Assembly: GCA_963664435.2 (NCBI GenBank)
Contig: CAXXKM010000001.1
Location: 768,001-832,000, forward strand
Source of the DNA: Longimicrobiales bacterium
Lineage (GTDB): Bacteria > Gemmatimonadota > Gemmatimonadetes > Longimicrobiales > Gaopeijiaceae
Direction: 5' to 3'
DNA length: 64,000 nt
The position numbers and the translations under genes were made by a program. The stretch's first letter is position 1; the number at the start of each line of letters is the position of its first letter. The notes below the pieces were generated by a model that had not been told where the DNA came from, searched no databases, and saw only the letters and a program-made list of their open reading frames with translations. Positions 36,281 to 44,021 of the stretch are shown here, one piece after another.

Positions 36281-36387
36281 GGCGCGTGTCGAGGAGGATG
36301 ACGCCTCTCCCATGAGAGGCACCCGAAGGTGCAATTGCACGAGCGCCGGCGCCAGAGGTGCGCCGGGTCCGGCCCGTCGCGGGGGCT

Positions 36388-37803
36388 TCAGGCCGCCTCA
36401 TCCTCCGCTCCGGTGGCCGGAATCCTCGCAATCAGCAGCGTGCACATGGCCGCCAGGATCAGAGAGGCCGCGGCCGGGAATCCGCCTCGCGATGCATCGC
36501 CGACCGGGGCAGCCGGCTCGAAGGCGGGCACCTGCTCCCAGTTCACCTGAGGGATCGCCGCGGCCGAGAACAGTGCCGGCTGGAAATGGGCCTTGAGGCG
36601 CTCGTGGTAGCGCCGGACCGCGTCCTGATAGGCGAGTTGGGCAGGCAGATCGGTGGAGGCGAGACGGTCGAGCGCAATTCGTGTTGCGACCGGCGGCACC
36701 AGCAGGGACCATCGGCCGGCCCAGTCGTCCCGTCGTGTCAGGACATCCCGGTAGGCGCGGGAGGCATCCCGGGCGGCCTGATCGCCCCGGTGATTCATCG
36801 CATAATACCAGGCCCAGGAGAACTCGTCTTCCGGGACGGTCCAGTCGCTCCACTGCGGGTAGTCCTCGAAGAAGGCTTCCATCGTCTCGGACGGCGGAAG
36901 ATCCCACGCCTCGTGATATCCCTGACGTTGGCGCACAGTCAGCTCCAGCGCCTCGGGCACGGGGTGCAGGATGGCGTTCGTCAGGCTCAGGACCGCCGGA
37001 GCCAGGAAGGTGAACGTCACCCACACCCCCACCAGGATCATCGCGTTGGCGGTTGAGGAGCGACGTCCGGCGGCGACGCCCACGCACAGCGCGAACCAGA
37101 AAAGGGTGTGCAGGGCGATCAGCGCGGCCGCCCAGCCCGCGTGGCCATCGCCTTCGATGCCCGTCAGCGATGCCCCGATCACCGCCAGTGACGTTACCAG
37201 GCCCCCAATGAGGATCACGCGCGCGCCGATCTTTGCGGCGACCAGCCGCCGGGGTCGGGCGAAGAGCCGCGCCATGTCCCAGGTGCCGCGCTCACGCTCT
37301 CCCGAAACGATGTCGTAGGTGACGGCAATGACGAAGAGGGGAAGCAGGGCGATGAGGATGAAGCTCAGATCGAGGCGCCCCGCGGCTGCGAGGCGCGGAT
37401 TCAGCGTCTCCTGCTCGTAGAGCTGTCCTTCGAGGGCCAGCAGCCTGATGCGCAGGCTGGCCGTCTCGACCTCCGCCCTGCCGCTTGCGAGCACCGACAG
37501 TCGGGATGGCGGCTGTGGTGCAGGAATGGCCAGGTAATACAACAACTCGCCCGCCTCGGTCGTCGGGGGATAGCGGGACATGAGATGGGCGAGCTGATCC
37601 CGGTAGGCGGTTTCGGCCGCTGCCGCGGCGGCCTCGGCCGTCTGGATTCTCAGGTTGCCCTGCCAGCTCGCATGGATGCCGAGCGCCAGCAGGAGAGCCG
37701 CCGCAACCGTTACGCCGCCGGAGCGGATCACCCGGGCGAGTTCAAGCCGAATGAGACGTACCCACGCTCTCGCGCTTTCAGACCCCACCTTGCCGGCTCT
37801 CAT
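36388..37803 (-). CDS. ABC-2-type permease, DUF3526 family
   Basis: LEGQLYEQETLNP..GRLDLSF, SGERERGTW and RQGYHEAWD..FSWAWYYAM. Confidence 0.82.
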   Translation of the reverse strand: MRAGKVGSESARAWVRLIRLELARVIRSGGVTVAAALLLALGIHASWQGNLRIQTAEAAAAAAETAYRDQLAHLMSRYPPTTEAGELLYYLAIPAPQPPSRLSVLASGRAEVETASLRIRLLALEGQLYEQETLNPRLAAAGRLDLSFILIALLPLFVIAVTYDIVSGERERGTWDMARLFARPRRLVAAKIGARVILIGGLVTSLAVIGASLTGIEGDGHAGWAAALIALHTLFWFALCVGVAAGRRSSTANAMILVGVWVTFTFLAPAVLSLTNAILHPVPEALELTVRQRQGYHEAWDLPPSETMEAFFEDYPQWSDWTVPEDEFSWAWYYAMNHRGDQAARDASRAYRDVLTRRDDWAGRWSLLVPPVATRIALDRLASTDLPAQLAYQDAVRRYHERLKAHFQPALFSAAAIPQVNWEQVPAFEPAAPVGDASRGGFPAAASLILAAMCTLLIARIPATGAEDEAA

Positions 37804-39231
37804 TTCGAGGGGCGGTCCACGCCCACGCGCGGCAGCCGCTTGCGACCCAGACCGAGGCCCGCGAGAGGAAGGGCGATCCACAGCCCCAGCGCGGCCAGCG
37901 AAAGAGGACGGTCGGCCAGGACCCGGCGGAGCGAGGGCGGGTCCGGCCGAAACACCGGGAACTGTGTCCAGCGCTCGCGCGCAATGCGCTGAGCGCGGTC
38001 GTTCTCGAAGTGGATCTCGTGGATGTGCAGGTCGTTCAGCCGCTGGATCATGTCGTAGCGATGGGCCTCGGCCTCGGCGCGGAACGCCTCCACAGCTTCC
38101 GGCCCGCTTCCCGCCGCCGCCATCGACAAGTCCCGCACCGCCAAATGGGGAGAGAGCAGCCCCAGCCACGCCATGACCCGGTCCTGCCTGCGATGAACGG
38201 CGAGCAGCTGTTGCTGATGCTCCTCGTTGATCCGGCTGGTGACCGCCTCTCCCTCGCGGCTTACCACTCCTGCCCAGTTGATCGGAAGCTCCTCGACCGA
38301 CGCCACCTGGTAGCGCGCCAGGTATTCGTCGCGCAGTGCACGGAAGAAGGGATCGTCCGGGTTGTGGCTGTCCCCCACCTGCCTCTGTGCTTCCTCCACC
38401 TCGGCGGTGAACTGGGAGCGCGACGGCAGGGGATGAAGCGCGGCCGCAAGGGAGGCGCCGAGGCGCGGGGCGGCAACGCACAGCACGACCCAGATGGCGA
38501 CGAGCTGGGCGAGAGCGGCCCGGGAAGAGGCTCTGCGCGACGAGACCCACACGGTAAGCAGAACCCACCCTGCCAGGTATGCCGCGTAGGTGGCCGCAAG
38601 CGCCAGCATCCGCGGGATCGAGGCCTGGTCCAGACCTTCGACGGTGACGAATGCGGCCGCGACCAGCCCGATCGGAAGGGCCGCCGCGAGGGCCGCGGCT
38701 CCGACGCCCAGCACCTTCCCCGCCATGATCTGCGCGGGAGTCGCGCCCTGGGCCAATAGTAGCGGAAGAGTCCCCTTTTCCCTCTCGCCGCTTACCGATG
38801 CGAATCCTGCGGCCACCACCAGCAACGGCACGAGCAGCCCCAGCACGGCGGCGCCCGAAACTCAGCATTGCAGTCGCGTGTCGCGCATCGCCGAAGCTGG
38901 CGCTGTTCTGCCGGTGCCCCTCCAGGTAGAGCGACGTCCCCGCGTAGGCGCCGACGCCCGGGTCGAAGAACGCCAGCGGTGCCTCTTCGCGGAAGACCAG
39001 GAACCCGTAGTGGATCACCCGGTGCGGATGCCGGTCCGGCTGCTCCGCCCACTGGCGATCGACCAGCGCCTGATAGCGGGCACGCTGTTCCGTCTCGCTC
39101 GCCGCGTGATGCCGGGCTCCGAGGACGGAGACGACACCCAGCGCGACGACGAGCCCCAGGAGGAACACGACGTAGCGATCCTCGCGCATCGCGCCAACCT
39201 GCCGCCGTGCGATCAACAGGACGTTGCTCAT
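37800..39231 (-). pseudogene. DUF3526-family ABC permease with frameshift near 38855
   Basis: N-terminal QPDRHPHRVIHYG..LEGHRQN is in one frame; LLVPLL..SGEREKGTL..GDSHNPDDP is in another. Confidence 0.8.
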
Positions 39232-39248
39232 CGTTGGGCGGGGCCCGT

Positions 39249-40679
39249 TCAGTCCGCTCCCCGCACCCGGCCGAGCCCCACCCCCGCGCCCGCGCCCGCC
39301 AGCAGGAGAAGTCCGCCCAGGACCGTGAGCGGAACACCCGCACGGCGTGTGACGTCGGTGGATTCCTCGTCCGCGAGACGGAACCTGGGCAGGTCGGGAA
39401 GGACGCTGGCGTCCATTTGCTCGCTGGCGAGGATTGCGGGCACGAAGAACTCCCGCCATTGCTCGGCGAACGCGCGCACCTGCGACTGGAAGCGGGCGAA
39501 ACGCGCGTCGCCCGTTCCCGCGGCGTCGATGAGCACCTCCTGCGCCAGGAGCGCCGGCGACAGGAATCGGTAACGGCGCACCAGCGCGATCTGCTCGGCG
39601 CGGCGTGCATCGTGTTCTCCCGTCACTTCCTCAAGGCGGCGGTTCACGGCGTCCGTGGCGGCCCAGGCGAGCGCGCCCAGGCCGGGCTCGTCGGCCACCA
39701 CGCCGCCCGCCATCTCCGGATGGTCCTCCAGATAGCGGGCGAGGAGTTCGCTGCGTTGGTTCACGGCGTCGTTGGAGGCCTCGCGCTGGGCGGTGACCAT
39801 CTGAACGCGGGAGGGCAGCGGGTGCAGCAGGCCCGACGCGATGTTGATGGCGGCCGGCAGCACCACCACCAGAACCAGCCACGCGCCCACCAGCACGGTG
39901 GCGTTCCACGCGGAGGATCGCCGCAGGGTGTTCACCCACGCCGCGAGCACGAACCAGAAGAGCGCGTAGGTGACCACCGTGGCGCACCAGAGAAGCACCT
40001 GGCCAGGCGAACCGAAGCCCCCCGTGACCAGAATGCCGAGCAGCGAGGCCGCCAGCACCATGCCCACGACCAGCAGTGCCCGGAAGGCCAGCTTCGCGGT
40101 CACGACGCTGCGGGCCGACACGGGCTGCGAGAGTGTCAGGGCCAGGGTTCCCTGCTCGCGCTCCTCGGACAGAACGTTGTAGCTGAGCGCCAAGACCAGG
40201 AGCGGCAGAAGGTAGATCACCACGAACGCCAGGTCGAAGCGCCCGACCATCAGGTTGAGGGGATTCTCGACCTCGCCGTTCTGGTGGAAGGACGACTCGT
40301 TGGTGTAGATGTTGACGTCGTAGTAGTACGGCAGGAGATCGCTCTGACCGACCGCGAGAGCCGTCAAGGGACCCGGTTCGAGCACCGCGGTGTGGCTGCC
40401 GCGGGCCCCACCCAGCACGTTGGGAGCGCGGGGATCGGCGAAGCGCGACGCCGGCTCGGCGCCGTTCTCGATGGCGGCCAGTTCCTGCTCGATGGCACGG
40501 ACGCGCTCGACGTTGTCGGTCTGCACGGCCTCCACCGTGCGCTCCTGAAACCGCATCCAGACGACGCCGTTGGCCAGCGCGTAGACGAGAAGGACGGCGA
40601 AGAGCCCAAGCACGATGCGGAGCGCCCGATCGGCCATGAGCAGACGCCATTCGTTCCGGAGGACGGTGCGCGCGGTCAT
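39249..40679 (-). CDS. ABC-2-type permease, DUF3526 family
   Basis: LAVGQSDLLP, ENPLNLMVGRFDLAFV..LLPL and LSEEREQGTL. Confidence 0.88.
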   Translation of the reverse strand: MTARTVLRNEWRLLMADRALRIVLGLFAVLLVYALANGVVWMRFQERTVEAVQTDNVERVRAIEQELAAIENGAEPASRFADPRAPNVLGGARGSHTAVLEPGPLTALAVGQSDLLPYYYDVNIYTNESSFHQNGEVENPLNLMVGRFDLAFVVIYLLPLLVLALSYNVLSEEREQGTLALTLSQPVSARSVVTAKLAFRALLVVGMVLAASLLGILVTGGFGSPGQVLLWCATVVTYALFWFVLAAWVNTLRRSSAWNATVLVGAWLVLVVVLPAAINIASGLLHPLPSRVQMVTAQREASNDAVNQRSELLARYLEDHPEMAGGVVADEPGLGALAWAATDAVNRRLEEVTGEHDARRAEQIALVRRYRFLSPALLAQEVLIDAAGTGDARFARFQSQVRAFAEQWREFFVPAILASEQMDASVLPDLPRFRLADEESTDVTRRAGVPLTVLGGLLLLAGAGAGVGLGRVRGAD

Positions 40680-40680
40680 G

Positions 40681-42087
40681 CTAACCCACCTCCGCGCGCC
40701 GTACCCGCGCCACGGCCGCCAGGATGGTCCCGACCAGCCACGTCCCCAGAACCAGGATCGACAGGATGCGGTTGCCCAGCACCCAGCCCAGCGTCGGGGC
40801 GGCGTACTGGAGCGGCGGCGTCTCCTCCCAGAGCTCGGGGCCGGCCAGGTAGACCTCGCCGGTGCGGGAGTTCTCGGCCAGGTCGCCGTTCATCCGCCGC
40901 ATCAGATCCCGGCGGTACGCCTCCGCGGCCGTCGCAAAGTGCCGATGCTGCTCTACATCGGTCCCGGCCAGTCCCATCGACAGCGTGCGCACCGCCAGCA
41001 ACGGCGCCACCACCGCGAGCGTCTCGTGCACGGCGCCCTGGCGCTCGAAGGTGTCCCACAACGCGCCGTAGTTGCGGTCGAAGATCCGATTGCCGAACTC
41101 CTCGCTCTCCTGCAGATAGACAGCCACCGCATTCACGGGCAGATCCTCGACCCGCTCCGCTCCGTGCTCGGCCAGCAGGCGCGCGGTCGACGCGTCCCGG
41201 TCCGCCCGGTGGATGTCCTCCACGCCGGAGGCCATCTCGCGTTCGATGTTGCGGGCGAACTCGATTGCCGACGGCGTCGGGTGCAGCCACTTCGACAGAT
41301 CCACCGCGACACGAGGCGCCACCAGCCCGTTCACCACCCACACGCCGAGCAGGATCACCAGCGCGGTGCGCGCGGTGCGCGCCCAGGCGGACACGGCCAG
41401 GGAGAGCGCCAGGAACGCGGTGAAGTAGGCAAGGTAGACGGCGGCCAGGACGGCACTGCGGGCAATCGGGGATGCCGCGGGACCGGGGCTCCCGACAACC
41501 AGGGCCGCCGCGCCCACCAGTGCCGCCGGAACCAGCAGCAACGCCAGCGCCCCGGCGACGCCCAGCGCCTTTCCCAGAGCCAGCTCTCGCCGGCCGATTC
41601 CGGTGGCCAGCAACTGGCGCAGCGTGCCCCGCTCCCGCTCGCCGGCGAGCGCGCCGAAGGTGAGCAGGATGATGAGCAGGGGCACGAGGTGCTGCAGCAC
41701 CTGCGCCGCCGTCAGTACCCCGATGCGCTGGGCTGCCGTTGCATCCTGCGCCGGGCGCAGAAGGAAGTCGTTCTGCCGGTGCGCCTCGAGCCAGACCGAG
41801 GTGCCGGTGTAGGGATCGACGCCCTCGTCGACAAAGGACAGCGCCAGCCTCGGCTTGAACGCGTACACGCCGTAGTGGGCCGCCGAATGGGGATTCTTCT
41901 CGCCCTGCGACTCCCAGTGGTCGCGGGCGGTGTCCTGCGCCGCTGCGTGCTCCTGCTGCGCGCTGCGTGCCTGAACCCACCCGTGGCCCAGGGAAACCAG
42001 CAGGAGCGCGCCCACCAGGACCGAGCACCAGCGGAAGCGCCCGTCCCGGAGGATGTCCGTGAACTCCTTGCGTACTATGTGCTTCAT
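40681..42087 (-). CDS. ABC-2-type permease, DUF3526 family
   Basis: QGEKNPHSAAHYG, WLEAHRQN, GERERGTL and SMGLAGTD..H..F..AE.YR. Confidence 0.88.
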   Translation of the reverse strand: MKHIVRKEFTDILRDGRFRWCSVLVGALLLVSLGHGWVQARSAQQEHAAAQDTARDHWESQGEKNPHSAAHYGVYAFKPRLALSFVDEGVDPYTGTSVWLEAHRQNDFLLRPAQDATAAQRIGVLTAAQVLQHLVPLLIILLTFGALAGERERGTLRQLLATGIGRRELALGKALGVAGALALLLVPAALVGAAALVVGSPGPAASPIARSAVLAAVYLAYFTAFLALSLAVSAWARTARTALVILLGVWVVNGLVAPRVAVDLSKWLHPTPSAIEFARNIEREMASGVEDIHRADRDASTARLLAEHGAERVEDLPVNAVAVYLQESEEFGNRIFDRNYGALWDTFERQGAVHETLAVVAPLLAVRTLSMGLAGTDVEQHRHFATAAEAYRRDLMRRMNGDLAENSRTGEVYLAGPELWEETPPLQYAAPTLGWVLGNRILSILVLGTWLVGTILAAVARVRRAEVG

Positions 42088-42096
42088 CGTCGTCTC

Positions 42097-42864
42097 CTAG
42101 TCGTGCATGTGCTTCAGATAGATGCGCTCGAGATCCGCGTGGCCGATCTCTTCGGTGCCCATCTCCGTGACCAGGCGTCCGTAGCGCATGATGCCCACGC
42201 GCGTCCCGGTCTCCTTGGCGCGAAACAGATCGTGGGTCGCCATCAGCACCGCGACGCCGCGATCCTTGAGCCGTTCGATCAGCTCGGAGAACTCGTTGGA
42301 GGCCTGCGGGTCGAGACCTGAGGTCGGCTCGTCGAGAAGCAGCGCGTCGGCCTCCTTGGCGATCGCGATCGCGATGCCGACCTTCTGCCGCATGCCCTTG
42401 GAGTACCCGGACACGCGGTCCTGGACCGCGGCGCGCTGAAGTCCCGCTTCGACCAGGATGTCGGTGAGCCGGTCCGGGGACAGGGATCCCCTCCCGCCCA
42501 GGGCGGCGAAGTACTCCAGGTTCTCCAGGCCGCTCAGGTTGCGGTAGAGCATGACCTGCTCGGGGATGTACGCGATCCGCTGTTTCGTCTCGCGGTCGTG
42601 GGCGGCCACGTCCAGGCCGGCGATCAGCGCATGTCCGGACGTGGGCGCCACGAATCCGAGGAAGAGGTTGATGGTGGTGGTCTTGCCCGCCCCGTTGGGG
42701 CCGAGGAGGCAGTAGACCTCTCCGGGCGCTATGGCCAGGTCGAGGGAGTCGAGGGCCCGGGTCGCGCCGTAGTTCTTGCTGAGGCCTCGGGCTTCGAGAA
42801 GGGGCGTGCGCCCATTCCCGGATTCGGCGACGTGCCGAGATGCGGGCGTCTGCATGGATTCCAT
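42097..42864 (-). CDS. ABC transporter ATP-binding protein
   Basis: Walker A GPNGAGKTT; signature YSKGMRQK; Walker B LLLDEP; switch ATHD. Confidence 0.95.
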   Translation of the reverse strand: MESMQTPASRHVAESGNGRTPLLEARGLSKNYGATRALDSLDLAIAPGEVYCLLGPNGAGKTTTINLFLGFVAPTSGHALIAGLDVAAHDRETKQRIAYIPEQVMLYRNLSGLENLEYFAALGGRGSLSPDRLTDILVEAGLQRAAVQDRVSGYSKGMRQKVGIAIAIAKEADALLLDEPTSGLDPQASNEFSELIERLKDRGVAVLMATHDLFRAKETGTRVGIMRYGRLVTEMGTEEIGHADLERIYLKHMHD

Positions 42865-42941
42865 CTCTCGTGTTGGGTGCGCCCTCGCGGACGCAACCAT
42901 CGACAGGGGCGGCCGACGGACGGGTCGGCCGGAGGACTCTG

Positions 42942-43259
42942 CTAGAGAGAGATGAAGAGAGGCGGGGCGCGGCTTCGGCGAGGGGTGAGATGAACGATCC
43001 GGGGAACGAACCGGCGCCCGCGGAACGCGGGAGTCCGCACCAGACTCGATCCCCCGAGGCTCGGAGTACCCGAGGCGATGGTCGGTCCAGGGTTGTGGAC
43101 GACCTGGCACACGGAACACGCGCCCGGAGAATCGGGGCCGTCACCGTGGGTGTGGGAACCTTCCGTGGAGTTGACGAGGAGGAGGAAGAGGATGACCGCC
43201 AGTCCGGTCACCGCACGCACGCGCTCCCGAGATCTCGCTGGATCAAACAGGTGCGCCAT
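42942..43259 (-). CDS. Putative regulatory leader peptide (DUF2946/CruR-like): signal/TM, HTH + CxxC, C-terminal RAPP
   Basis: 105 aa; GGAGG RBS; hydrophobic N-terminus; SHTHG..CSVC..H; ends RSRAPPLFISL. Confidence 0.78.
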   Translation of the reverse strand: MAHLFDPARSRERVRAVTGLAVILFLLLVNSTEGSHTHGDGPDSPGACSVCQVVHNPGPTIASGTPSLGGSSLVRTPAFRGRRFVPRIVHLTPRRSRAPPLFISL

Positions 43260-43336
43260 CGTTCGCTCCTCCACCTCGCGGACTCCCCATCCACCCACTC
43301 GACCGTCTCCCGGACGTTCGGGACGCGCCGGACGCT

Positions 43337-43365
43337 ACCGTAGCGCGCTGGTCCGGAGAGGTCAA
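43337..43365 (-). promoter_or_regulatory. Putative sigma70 promoter for the leader/ABC operon
   Basis: TTGACC-N17-TACGGT on the minus strand; palindrome CGCTAC-C-GTAGCG overlaps the -10. Confidence 0.55.
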
Positions 43366-43472
43366 TACATGGGCGGCGCCACACGCGGTTGCCCCGACCT
43401 CACCCAAACCCGTTAGATTCATCGAGGTCCGGGCCGCAGGTCCGGCCGGTTCACCCGGAAGACAGGACGACC

Positions 43473-44021
43473 ATGAACGTTGCCGCCGCCATCCTGCTCG
43501 CCACTTCCGCGCTGCACGCCAGCGGCGCGACCCAGGAACCCATGTCCACGGGTCCCTCGCACGCCGGCTACAGCGACGCCGTGACCATGCGGCACTCGCA
43601 CGACGGGCCCCACGGCGAGGACCTTCTCCGCATCGAGCAGATGATCCGCTGCACCTGCGGATGCCTCATGGACACCCACATCTGTCAGTACCAGATGCAG
43701 TGCGCGGAATCCCCGCTCTACACTCAGCGCATCCTGGCGGCGCTGGAGGCGGGCGAGACCGAGGAAGTCATTCTCGCCGGCTTCGTCGCCGACTTCGGCG
43801 CGGACATCATCAGTTCGCCCCCGGTGGAAGGCTTCAACCGGGTGGGCTATTTCATGCCCGCGGTCGCGATCGTCTTCTCGGGCCTTCTCATCGGGCTGTT
43901 CGTGCGCAGAAACGTGGCCCGGGGACGGAGACGCGCGCCGGTGGTGGCGTCGGATATCTCCGACAAGGACTGGGAGCAGCTGCGCAAGGAGATGAAGGCG
44001 CTGGAGAAGGAAGACTGGTAG
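43473..44021 (+). CDS. CcmH/CycL-like cytochrome c biogenesis protein
   Basis: Signal peptide; IRCTCGC; AGETEEVILAGFVADFG..I.SSPP..GFN..GY.MP; one TM segment. Confidence 0.7.
   Translation: MNVAAAILLATSALHASGATQEPMSTGPSHAGYSDAVTMRHSHDGPHGEDLLRIEQMIRCTCGCLMDTHICQYQMQCAESPLYTQRILAALEAGETEEVILAGFVADFGADIISSPPVEGFNRVGYFMPAVAIVFSGLLIGLFVRRNVARGRRRAPVVASDISDKDWEQLRKEMKALEKEDW

Follow-up and report, generated by a model that had tools for sequence, protein, structure and literature searches.

In the window (the whole stretch of DNA analysed here, 64,000 nucleotides), an operon for an ABC ATPase and four DUF3526 permeases is headed by a leader open reading frame of 105 residues (42942..43259; all features of this cassette are on the minus strand). 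Judged from the sequence, this is a genuine and conserved member of a known leader family. The operon that it heads is uncharacterised, the output is probably translational, and zinc is suggested by comparative genomics. It is an evenly balanced question whether the complete reading is correct, namely that a cis-acting arrest leader of the DUF2946 (CruR/CutF) type would activate this DUF3526 operon under scarcity of a divalent metal, zinc being the most likely one.

The leader starts with an export-signal-like N-terminus (residues 1-34; 43158..43259), comprising a basic n-region, a hydrophobic stretch at residues 16-30 with a mean Kyte-Doolittle value of 2.53, and a putative cleavage site after TEG. 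In the AlphaFold model, residues 7-34 form a confident helix (pLDDT about 90) and the chain beyond residue 55 is unstructured; no metal site was resolved in this model (pTM 0.31). An HxH motif formed by H36 and H38 (HTH, residues 36-38; 43146..43154) is conserved in the homologues: it is present in 35/35 Gemmatimonadota-type and 38/38 Acidobacteria-type leaders with CxxC. The CxxCxxxH motif consists of C48, C51 and H55, CSVC being residues 48-51 (43095..43118). After 45 intervening residues, the RAPP arrest motif (residues 97-100; 42960..42971) is located five residues before the stop. It is preceded by Ser, and SRAPP is conserved in 37/37 Gemmatimonadota-type and 36/38 Acidobacteria-type leaders. 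The ribosome-binding site of the leader, GGAGG, lies 8 nt before the ATG (43268..43272). The hydrophobic N-terminus, the HTH and CSVC..H ligands, the linker of about 45 residues before RAPP and this ribosome-binding site had all been named in the initial annotation, and each was found at the positions given here.

The same annotation proposed a check with the DUF2946 profile (Pfam PF11162). The leader passed it narrowly, with 24.6 bits for a cut-off of 23.7 (E 4.4e-5). In a six-frame search of the whole genome the leader scored 23.1 bits, just below the cut-off, and no other DUF2946 match was found; none of the 12 homologous leaders scanned was above the cut-off. The genome contains 39,302 stop-to-stop frames of at least 60 residues. 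RAPP is within the last 15 residues in 130 of them, three of which have CxxC 44-46 residues upstream of RAPP, and a signal-like stretch, judged by eye, occurs among these three in the leader only. A profile of 75 leaders detected no second leader in the window's own genome (best other E 0.28). Three near-identical stretches of this genome (C1:727974-728333, C3:1160221-1160580 and C3:573817-574176) are probably a repeated mobile element. The filters for CutF-like proteins (Ozturk 2023) are a length below 150 residues, PP in the last 15 residues, a signal peptide and a same-strand neighbour within 1000 nt; the leader has 105 residues, PP at 99-100, a signal-like N-terminus and such a neighbour at 86 nt. 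The sequence features of the DUF2946/CruR family are all found together: the PF11162 score, CxxC, a C-terminal RAPP, the spacing of 45, an N-terminal signal-like helix and the position as first gene of an operon. The peptide is thus very probably a functional leader of the DUF2946 type.

For the survey upstream of DUF3526 operons, GTDB genomes were scanned with permease A. The scan confirmed 162 places; the best 80 were kept, mostly from Longimicrobiales/Gemmatimonadota or Vicinamibacteria/Acidobacteriota, and 77 were scored for a leader, since three had no upstream DNA. Among these best 80 of 162 loci, a RAPP-ending leader precedes 74/77 operons in two phyla, and CxxC is kept in 72/74 of the leaders; RAPP is present in 74/74 by selection, because it defined the leader set. 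This survey had been suggested beforehand, and lack of conservation of CxxC or RAPP had been named as an argument against an arrest peptide; both motifs proved to be conserved. In three Acidobacteria-type loci the operon has no RAPP leader and directly follows a different gene. Compared with the window peptide, Gemmatimonadota-type leaders have a median identity of 45% and Acidobacteria-type leaders one of 20%. The CxxC-RAPP spacing is 45 in the window and in 34 Gemmatimonadota-type leaders, and 42 in 38 Acidobacteria-type leaders, just outside 45 ± 2. The linker sequence between the two motifs is not conserved, although its length is fixed at one of these two values. As natural variants, one Cys is lost in L070 and L128, and RDPP replaces RAPP in L149.

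These variants would suit a peptide whose metal ligands do not control the stall, either a secretion monitor or just a small metal-binding protein that is exported. The fixed spacing across a non-conserved linker, the predicted lack of structure after residue 55 and the behaviour of Streptomyces lividans proteins, 7/7 tested ones with a C-terminal RAPP/RGPP being stalled according to the accessible part of PMC12992588, make this explanation extremely unlikely. By analogy with CruR, stalling at RAPP can be expected with good confidence in the leader.

The operon was found in 35/301 sampled genomes of the phylum, and 31 of these 35 match the leader profile. Among the remaining four, G305 has an RGPP leader recognised by motif, G007 is cut by the end of a contig, and no leader is present in G226 or G302. 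Ten of the 12 plasmid records were examined: a CxxC + RAPP/RGPP leader is present in two (Comamonas and Chondrinema), two Hymenobacter loci have an RGPP peptide without CxxC, and no leader was found in six. Several leaders may also be clustered: three or four with CxxC and RAPP/RGPP are located within 1.5-5 kb, on both strands, in L094:3702-5078, L112:3716-5096 and L124:2-5084, and one of those in L094 precedes only an apparent end of a TonB receptor gene. Paralogous leaders also occur at L238, L239 and L248; the operons behind them encode a Pyr_redox_3 oxidoreductase and a Gate-domain membrane protein, in most cases preceded by a TonB receptor.

The promoter, leader and operon form a cassette (36285..43387), which is missing as one block in three genomes of the same genus (G001, G009 and G011): ccmH is kept, and the promoter and leader are gone together with the operon. 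In other words, the leader, as judged from these comparisons, travels with the operon. A CcmH-domain gene and a copper P-type ATPase gene (copA) are indeed near the operon in the window, as noted in the initial annotation. Their use as a hint of copper was not borne out: among the best 80 of 162 loci, the two genes flank 8/80, all at ≥91% permease identity, and they stay when the cassette is gone. The copper argument from this pair was therefore rejected; on the evidence of these genomes, the neighbourhood is genus synteny and incidental. The CcmH-domain protein (window 43473-44021) has a His-rich N-terminal stretch and a CxCxC..C..C pattern and is encoded divergently from the leader, followed by DUF6526 and methyltransferase genes. 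Its conservation within the genus does not depend on whether the cassette is present.

A sigma70-like promoter candidate, with TTGACC at -35, a 17-nt spacer and TACGGT at -10 (43337..43365), is visible inside the cassette. The claim that the leader has its own promoter thus stands in a weaker form: the pattern is strict in 14/37 and loose in 25/37 Gemmatimonadota-type upstream regions, but a consensus scan called 0 promoter sites, this candidate included. The scan also gave 0 terminator sites; therefore, no intrinsic terminator was found. In many of the Acidobacteria-type loci L084-L130, a promoter-like site of the form TTGACG..TA(C/A)AAG ends, by eye, about 6 nt before the leader ATG, which suggests a leaderless mRNA. 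AT-rich palindromes are situated just 5' of the leader in L098:4600-4800, possibly a Fur-family box on top of leader control. In the 215 nt before the window leader, a search for a Zur box found no AT-rich palindrome, and the best match to the Caulobacter core had 6/12 mismatches; since the genome has three Fur-family genes, a box of another type may exist. In the single RNA-type run holding any of the stretch (share 0.07, contigs only), pieces about 90% alike cover transporter genes and none covers the leader. Because leaders diverge fast, this missing cover is uninformative.

The first gene after the leader encodes the ABC ATPase (PF00005; 42097..42855). Its start is the ATG at 42855, which is invariant in the homologues; the ATG at 42864 was rejected, being out of frame in many of them. 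Permeases A (40681..42087), B (39249..40679), C (37800..39231) and D (36388..37803) follow, each with ABC2_membrane_2 and DUF3526 domains by Pfam. The operon has no gene for a binding protein: the cassette consists of the leader, the ATPase and the four permeases. There are no NCBIfam names for the leader or the permeases. Conserved His motifs occur in permeases A and C, ahead of the second membrane helix; those of permease A are His-rich and extracytoplasmic. The model of permease A (pLDDT 83) has a NosY-like fold. Its best solved match is NosY (PDB 7o0y; Z 21.0, rmsd 3.4 Å over 253 residues; next match Z 16.3), and every one of the 6 Foldseek matches at E ≤ 0.001 is a NosY chain.

Comparison with four intact homologues shows a frameshift in permease C near 38851. 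The frameshift is shared by runs X2 and X3, which may be the window's own source, and run X6 has the intact form; it looks like a strain-level break. The pair of permeases C and D may be decaying after loss of its own TonB receptor. No orthologue of the operon-linked TonB receptor was found by tblastn in the window's own genome, which is 96% complete, and the same search gave no COG0523 match. At other loci (L043:9030-11444, L148:7387-10086, L147:4185-9881), a TonB receptor separates permease B from permease C, or receptor, C and D form an operon of their own behind a second leader. The four permeases therefore look like two modules.

The intergenic region between leader and ATPase is 86 nt long and predicted to be mostly paired. 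In the predicted fold of the window, the F-I-S codons after RAPP (the downstream anti-SD arm, 42947..42956) form the 5' side of helix P1, and the ribosome-binding region of the ATPase (42860..42869), in which GAGAGA is invariant in the alignment, forms the 3' side. This junction encloses two hairpins, P2 (42910..42931) and P3 (42875..42898), and has a z value of only -1.6. An upstream copy of the anti-SD sequence is present in the H-L-T codons, 7 codons before RAPP (42985..42992). The loci for the RNA alignment were chosen by the presence of both pairing motifs, which brings a risk of circularity; of the Gemmatimonadota-type leaders, 35/36 had both, and the remaining one, L101, also folds into P1. 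The alignment has 36 rows, 35 of them distinct. Its consensus structure reaches 97.3% pairing, compared with 30-55% for slid partners, and P1 is 98.2% paired across the 35 distinct rows. Compensatory changes are seen in P2 and P3. P1 is almost invariant, with a two-sided change in 1/8 pairs, so that its support comes from codon bias more than from covariation. The Ser codon in the anti-SD arm is TCT in 34/36 leaders, compared with 20/358 of their other Ser codons and 2.1% genome-wide. The probability of P1 has a median of 0.79 for the real sequences and 0.05 after synonymous recoding, the real value being higher in 34/36. At the upstream copy, the His codon is CAT in 27/29, compared with 38/191 other His codons.

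Since, in the Gemmatimonadota-type loci, pairing between the codons that follow RAPP and the ribosome-binding region before the ATPase is apparently under codon-level selection, and a second copy is placed before RAPP, the output is probably translational. An anti-SD output is considered likely. The conserved element seems to be an anti-SD helix, that is, a translational coupling like those of CutF and SecM, more than a Rho terminator. A related pairing was seen for paralogous leaders before TonB receptors: 4/5 folded (L239, L241, L244 and L246; not L242) pair GTCTC at a Val codon with GAGAC, in place of the ATCTC-GAGAT pairing seen at the DUF3526 operons.

Rho-dependent termination as in CruR, with the stalled ribosome hiding a rut site and the helix being secondary, would be suggested by the CruR precedent itself, by the presence of Rho in the genome and by C-rich 78-nt windows round the 3' end of the leader (C/G 2.1, compared with 1.0-1.4 on the flanks). 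However, this C-richness follows from the Pro codons and the anti-SD sequences, and the short, mostly paired intergenic region is unlike an unstructured rut site. Rho-dependent termination as the main output, with the helix secondary, is thus quite unlikely. A contribution of Rho may nevertheless exist: an untranslated ATPase gene would invite Rho, so the two modes can act together.

In the anti-SD model, transcription of the operon would start at the promoter ahead of the leader. On ribosome-free mRNA, the codons after RAPP are predicted to pair with the ribosome-binding region of the ATPase across the two conserved hairpins, and the ATPase would remain untranslated. A stalled ribosome has a footprint that reaches 12-15 nt past the P site. 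Therefore, the downstream anti-SD arm would be covered upon stalling. The median unpaired probability of the SD region was 0.08 in the free mRNA and rose to 0.41 when the stretch under the stalled ribosome and everything upstream of it were taken out of the fold. The gain in opening energy was 2.0 kcal/mol in the window (median 5.3). Acidobacteria-type loci showed no consistent opening, with a median of 0.6 kcal/mol and more than 2 in 12/37.

The upstream copy would have to be blocked as well. It dominates over the downstream copy in 17/36 leaders and is the weaker one in the window (-10.6 versus -15.2 kcal/mol). When it was left free in the stalled state, the SD stayed shut, with a median unpaired probability of 0.01 (0.07 in the window), in a calculation that ignores the bulk of the ribosome. 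Opening thus needs steric exclusion or a queued second ribosome, and by either route the ON state should go with stalling in these models. When ribosomes only pass or terminate, the upstream copy might re-lock the site, so that only long stalls would open it.

The stall itself would leave the P and A sites occupied by the two RAPP Pro codons, as observed by toeprint for CruR in vitro (PMC12992588, accessible part). Once RAPP has reached the peptidyl-transferase centre, the cluster of HxH, CxxC and H would be 45-60 residues back, out of the tunnel and probably in or beyond SecY. Binding of metal at this cluster would then release the stall, the helix would re-form and uptake would be shut off; this polarity is taken from CruR and from the uptake-like behaviour of the operon. 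Relief of the stall by metal is, by the same analogy, probable.

The identity of the metal was approached through the distribution of ZnuA. Among the 301 genomes of the phylum (144 with ZnuA), ZnuA is found in 1/35 operon-bearing genomes (G234 alone) versus 143/266 without the operon; the Fisher p value of 1.4e-9 is overstated, since kin are not independent. Neither operon nor ZnuA is present in 123/301. The family PF01297 also includes Mn/Fe binding proteins. No ZnuA match was found in the window's own genome. Its genus has 8 operon genomes without ZnuA and 2 operon-less genomes with it, and the two kinds of genome likewise occur together within genera g60, g88 and g65; in genus g20, 6/7 operon-less genomes are also without ZnuA. 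Four genomes without a DUF3526 operon (G001, G009, G162 and G283) have instead an operon of an outer-membrane-type gene, ZnuA and ABC-3 under a different RAPP leader with another Cys/His pattern. A second leader type (ExxHDP..C..HxH..C, RAPP) heads operons of this composition in L230-L233; for L231 and L232, pairing was seen between its stop region and the SD of the next gene. Because the operon almost never occurs with ZnuA in the genomes searched, a zinc-starvation switch is probable rather than a copper switch. Zinc, rather than copper or another metal, is slightly favoured by this comparison.

The TonB receptors and leaderless operons were considered in addition. For all five stand-alone receptors that were tested and follow paralogous leaders, ZnuD is the best match, below the cut-off, and for the seven tied to DUF3526 operons it is the siderophore-receptor model; none of the 12 tested matches a copper receptor model best. 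In L143:7050-7216 and L144, leaderless Gemmatimonadota DUF3526 operons have a palindrome before the ATPase. Two COG0523 genes are near the operon in L143. The palindromes before the leaderless operons L133, L134, L137, L139 and L143 were weighed lightly, as no shuffled sequences served as a control and such palindromes are common in AT-rich DNA.

The same switch might respond to copper, the DUF3526 complex being a NosFY-like machine that handles periplasmic copper. NosDFY is part of a copper-delivery system. Since permease A folds like NosY, copper retains some probability; both characterised members of the leader family sense copper through Cys motifs, and copA and the CcmH-domain gene are close by. 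A common fold shows no substrate, however, and the sparse flanking by ccmH/copA, the receptor matches and the near exclusion with ZnuA all oppose this reading, which is therefore unlikely. The initial annotation had carried the logic of CruR over to an ABC/DUF3526 system. What holds of this is a DUF2946/CruR-type leader conserved with the operon; the output seems to be an anti-SD helix more than a Rho terminator, and the comparative evidence leans to zinc.

The direction of transport is connected with the polarity of the switch. With the polarity of CutF, periplasmic metal would prolong the stall, turn the operon on and let the ABC-2 complex export or detoxify the metal. CutF itself combines a signal peptide, a stall and an SD-hiding stem-loop, ABC-2/type V folds are mostly exporters among the structural matches, and the operon lacks a binding protein. 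On the other hand, a TonB receptor adjoins the distant operon in 9/10 plasmid records examined, which points to uptake; the operon exchanges with ZnuA importers, and RAPP with the 45-residue spacing is of the CruR type. A switch of CutF polarity is thus very unlikely, and uptake under metal scarcity is the preferred reading.

A more far-reaching proposal, which we regard as doubtful, is that a zinc-sensing arrest peptide controls an exporter-fold ABC complex (type V, NosY-like) that imports zinc without a separate binding protein, via its own extracytoplasmic His motifs, and replaces ZnuABC; owing to the two anti-SD copies, the site would open only with a queued second ribosome, a threshold inherent in the mRNA. 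The near exclusion with ZnuA predicts such a binding-protein-free, exporter-fold complex doing the job of ZnuABC, and the paired anti-SD copies give a sharp prediction on how stall length is read out. Both characterised DUF2946 leaders sense copper, and in surveys other metals are no more than conjecture; this locus is a testable candidate for a zinc-tuned member. It also gives a functional handle on DUF3526. The class of switch is already known, and the target operon is uncharacterised.

In the literature searched, neither a paper on DUF3526 or PF12040 nor a zinc-sensing arrest peptide was found. Within the available text, the term ABC does not occur in the main text, figures aside, of PMC9426467, PMC9973294 or PMC10987492. 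The accessible supplements of PMC9426467, including Table S1, have no Gemmatimonadota, Acidobacteria or DUF3526 entry, and those of PMC12992588, file 10 aside, no DUF3526 or PF12040 entry.

When the known systems are compared, NosFY of NosDFY (PDB 7o0y) resembles the permeases in the membrane part, which has a NosY-like fold. The DUF3526 permeases differ in about 200 extra residues including DUF3526, in their heterologous pairing and in the lack of a NosD-like gene in the cassette. In Caulobacter crescentus, according to the accessible part of PMC4176598, Zur represses znuGHI, which encodes an ABC-2 ATPase and two permeases, lies next to a TonB receptor and, as here, has no binding protein; phenotypes are given there for znuK and znuL. 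The difference is that Zur controls znuGHI at transcription, not through a leader. The Caulobacter (C. vibrioides) control matches DUF3526 (PF12040) and not ZnuA, and is the only control with DUF3526; we infer that znuH and znuI encode DUF3526 proteins. In the Novosphingobium locus L137 the layout is divergent like that of znuGHI, with a palindrome 3/12 mismatches from the core of the published boxes. An exact metagenome search with the published Caulobacter znuK box gave no DUF3526 permease in 35 stretches; thus, the link to znuGHI stayed indirect.

Among arrest peptides, ApdA, ApdP, the RQH family and the S. lividans set are likewise short exported frames that carry RAPP close to the C-terminus and precede a gene of the same orientation, but in the accessible parts of PMC10987492 and PMC12992588 they mostly monitor Sec/YidC. 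CutF of Rhodobacter capsulatus has an exported leader, a Cys motif and a Pro-rich end, and its stall opens an mRNA structure that hides the SD of the next gene (PMC9973294; bioRxiv 10.1101/2025.02.05.636593; accessible parts); some CutF-like proteins are proposed to sense other metals (PMC9973294, available text). As far as these sources go, CutF carries CxxxC, ends in polyproline, requires EF-P, stalls more with copper and induces a detoxifying oxidase, whereas the window leader has CxxC and RAPP, and its anti-SD sequence lies inside its own last codons, in two copies. CruR (Bp2923) of Bordetella pertussis is the copper-sensing prototype of DUF2946/PF11162 and acts by Rho-dependent termination (PMC9426467, accessible part). 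CruR and the window leader are both the first gene of their operon and share an export signal, CxxC, 45 intervening residues and a C-terminal RAPP, and in both stalling is probably the ON state for uptake. The target differs, being a TonB receptor for CruR and an ABC ATPase with DUF3526 permeases here, and the window leader has the additional HxH and His ligands. In CruR, as far as the source is available, the intergenic region is 162 nt with a mapped rut site; here it is 86 nt, structured and closed by a conserved anti-SD helix, and the metal is probably zinc.
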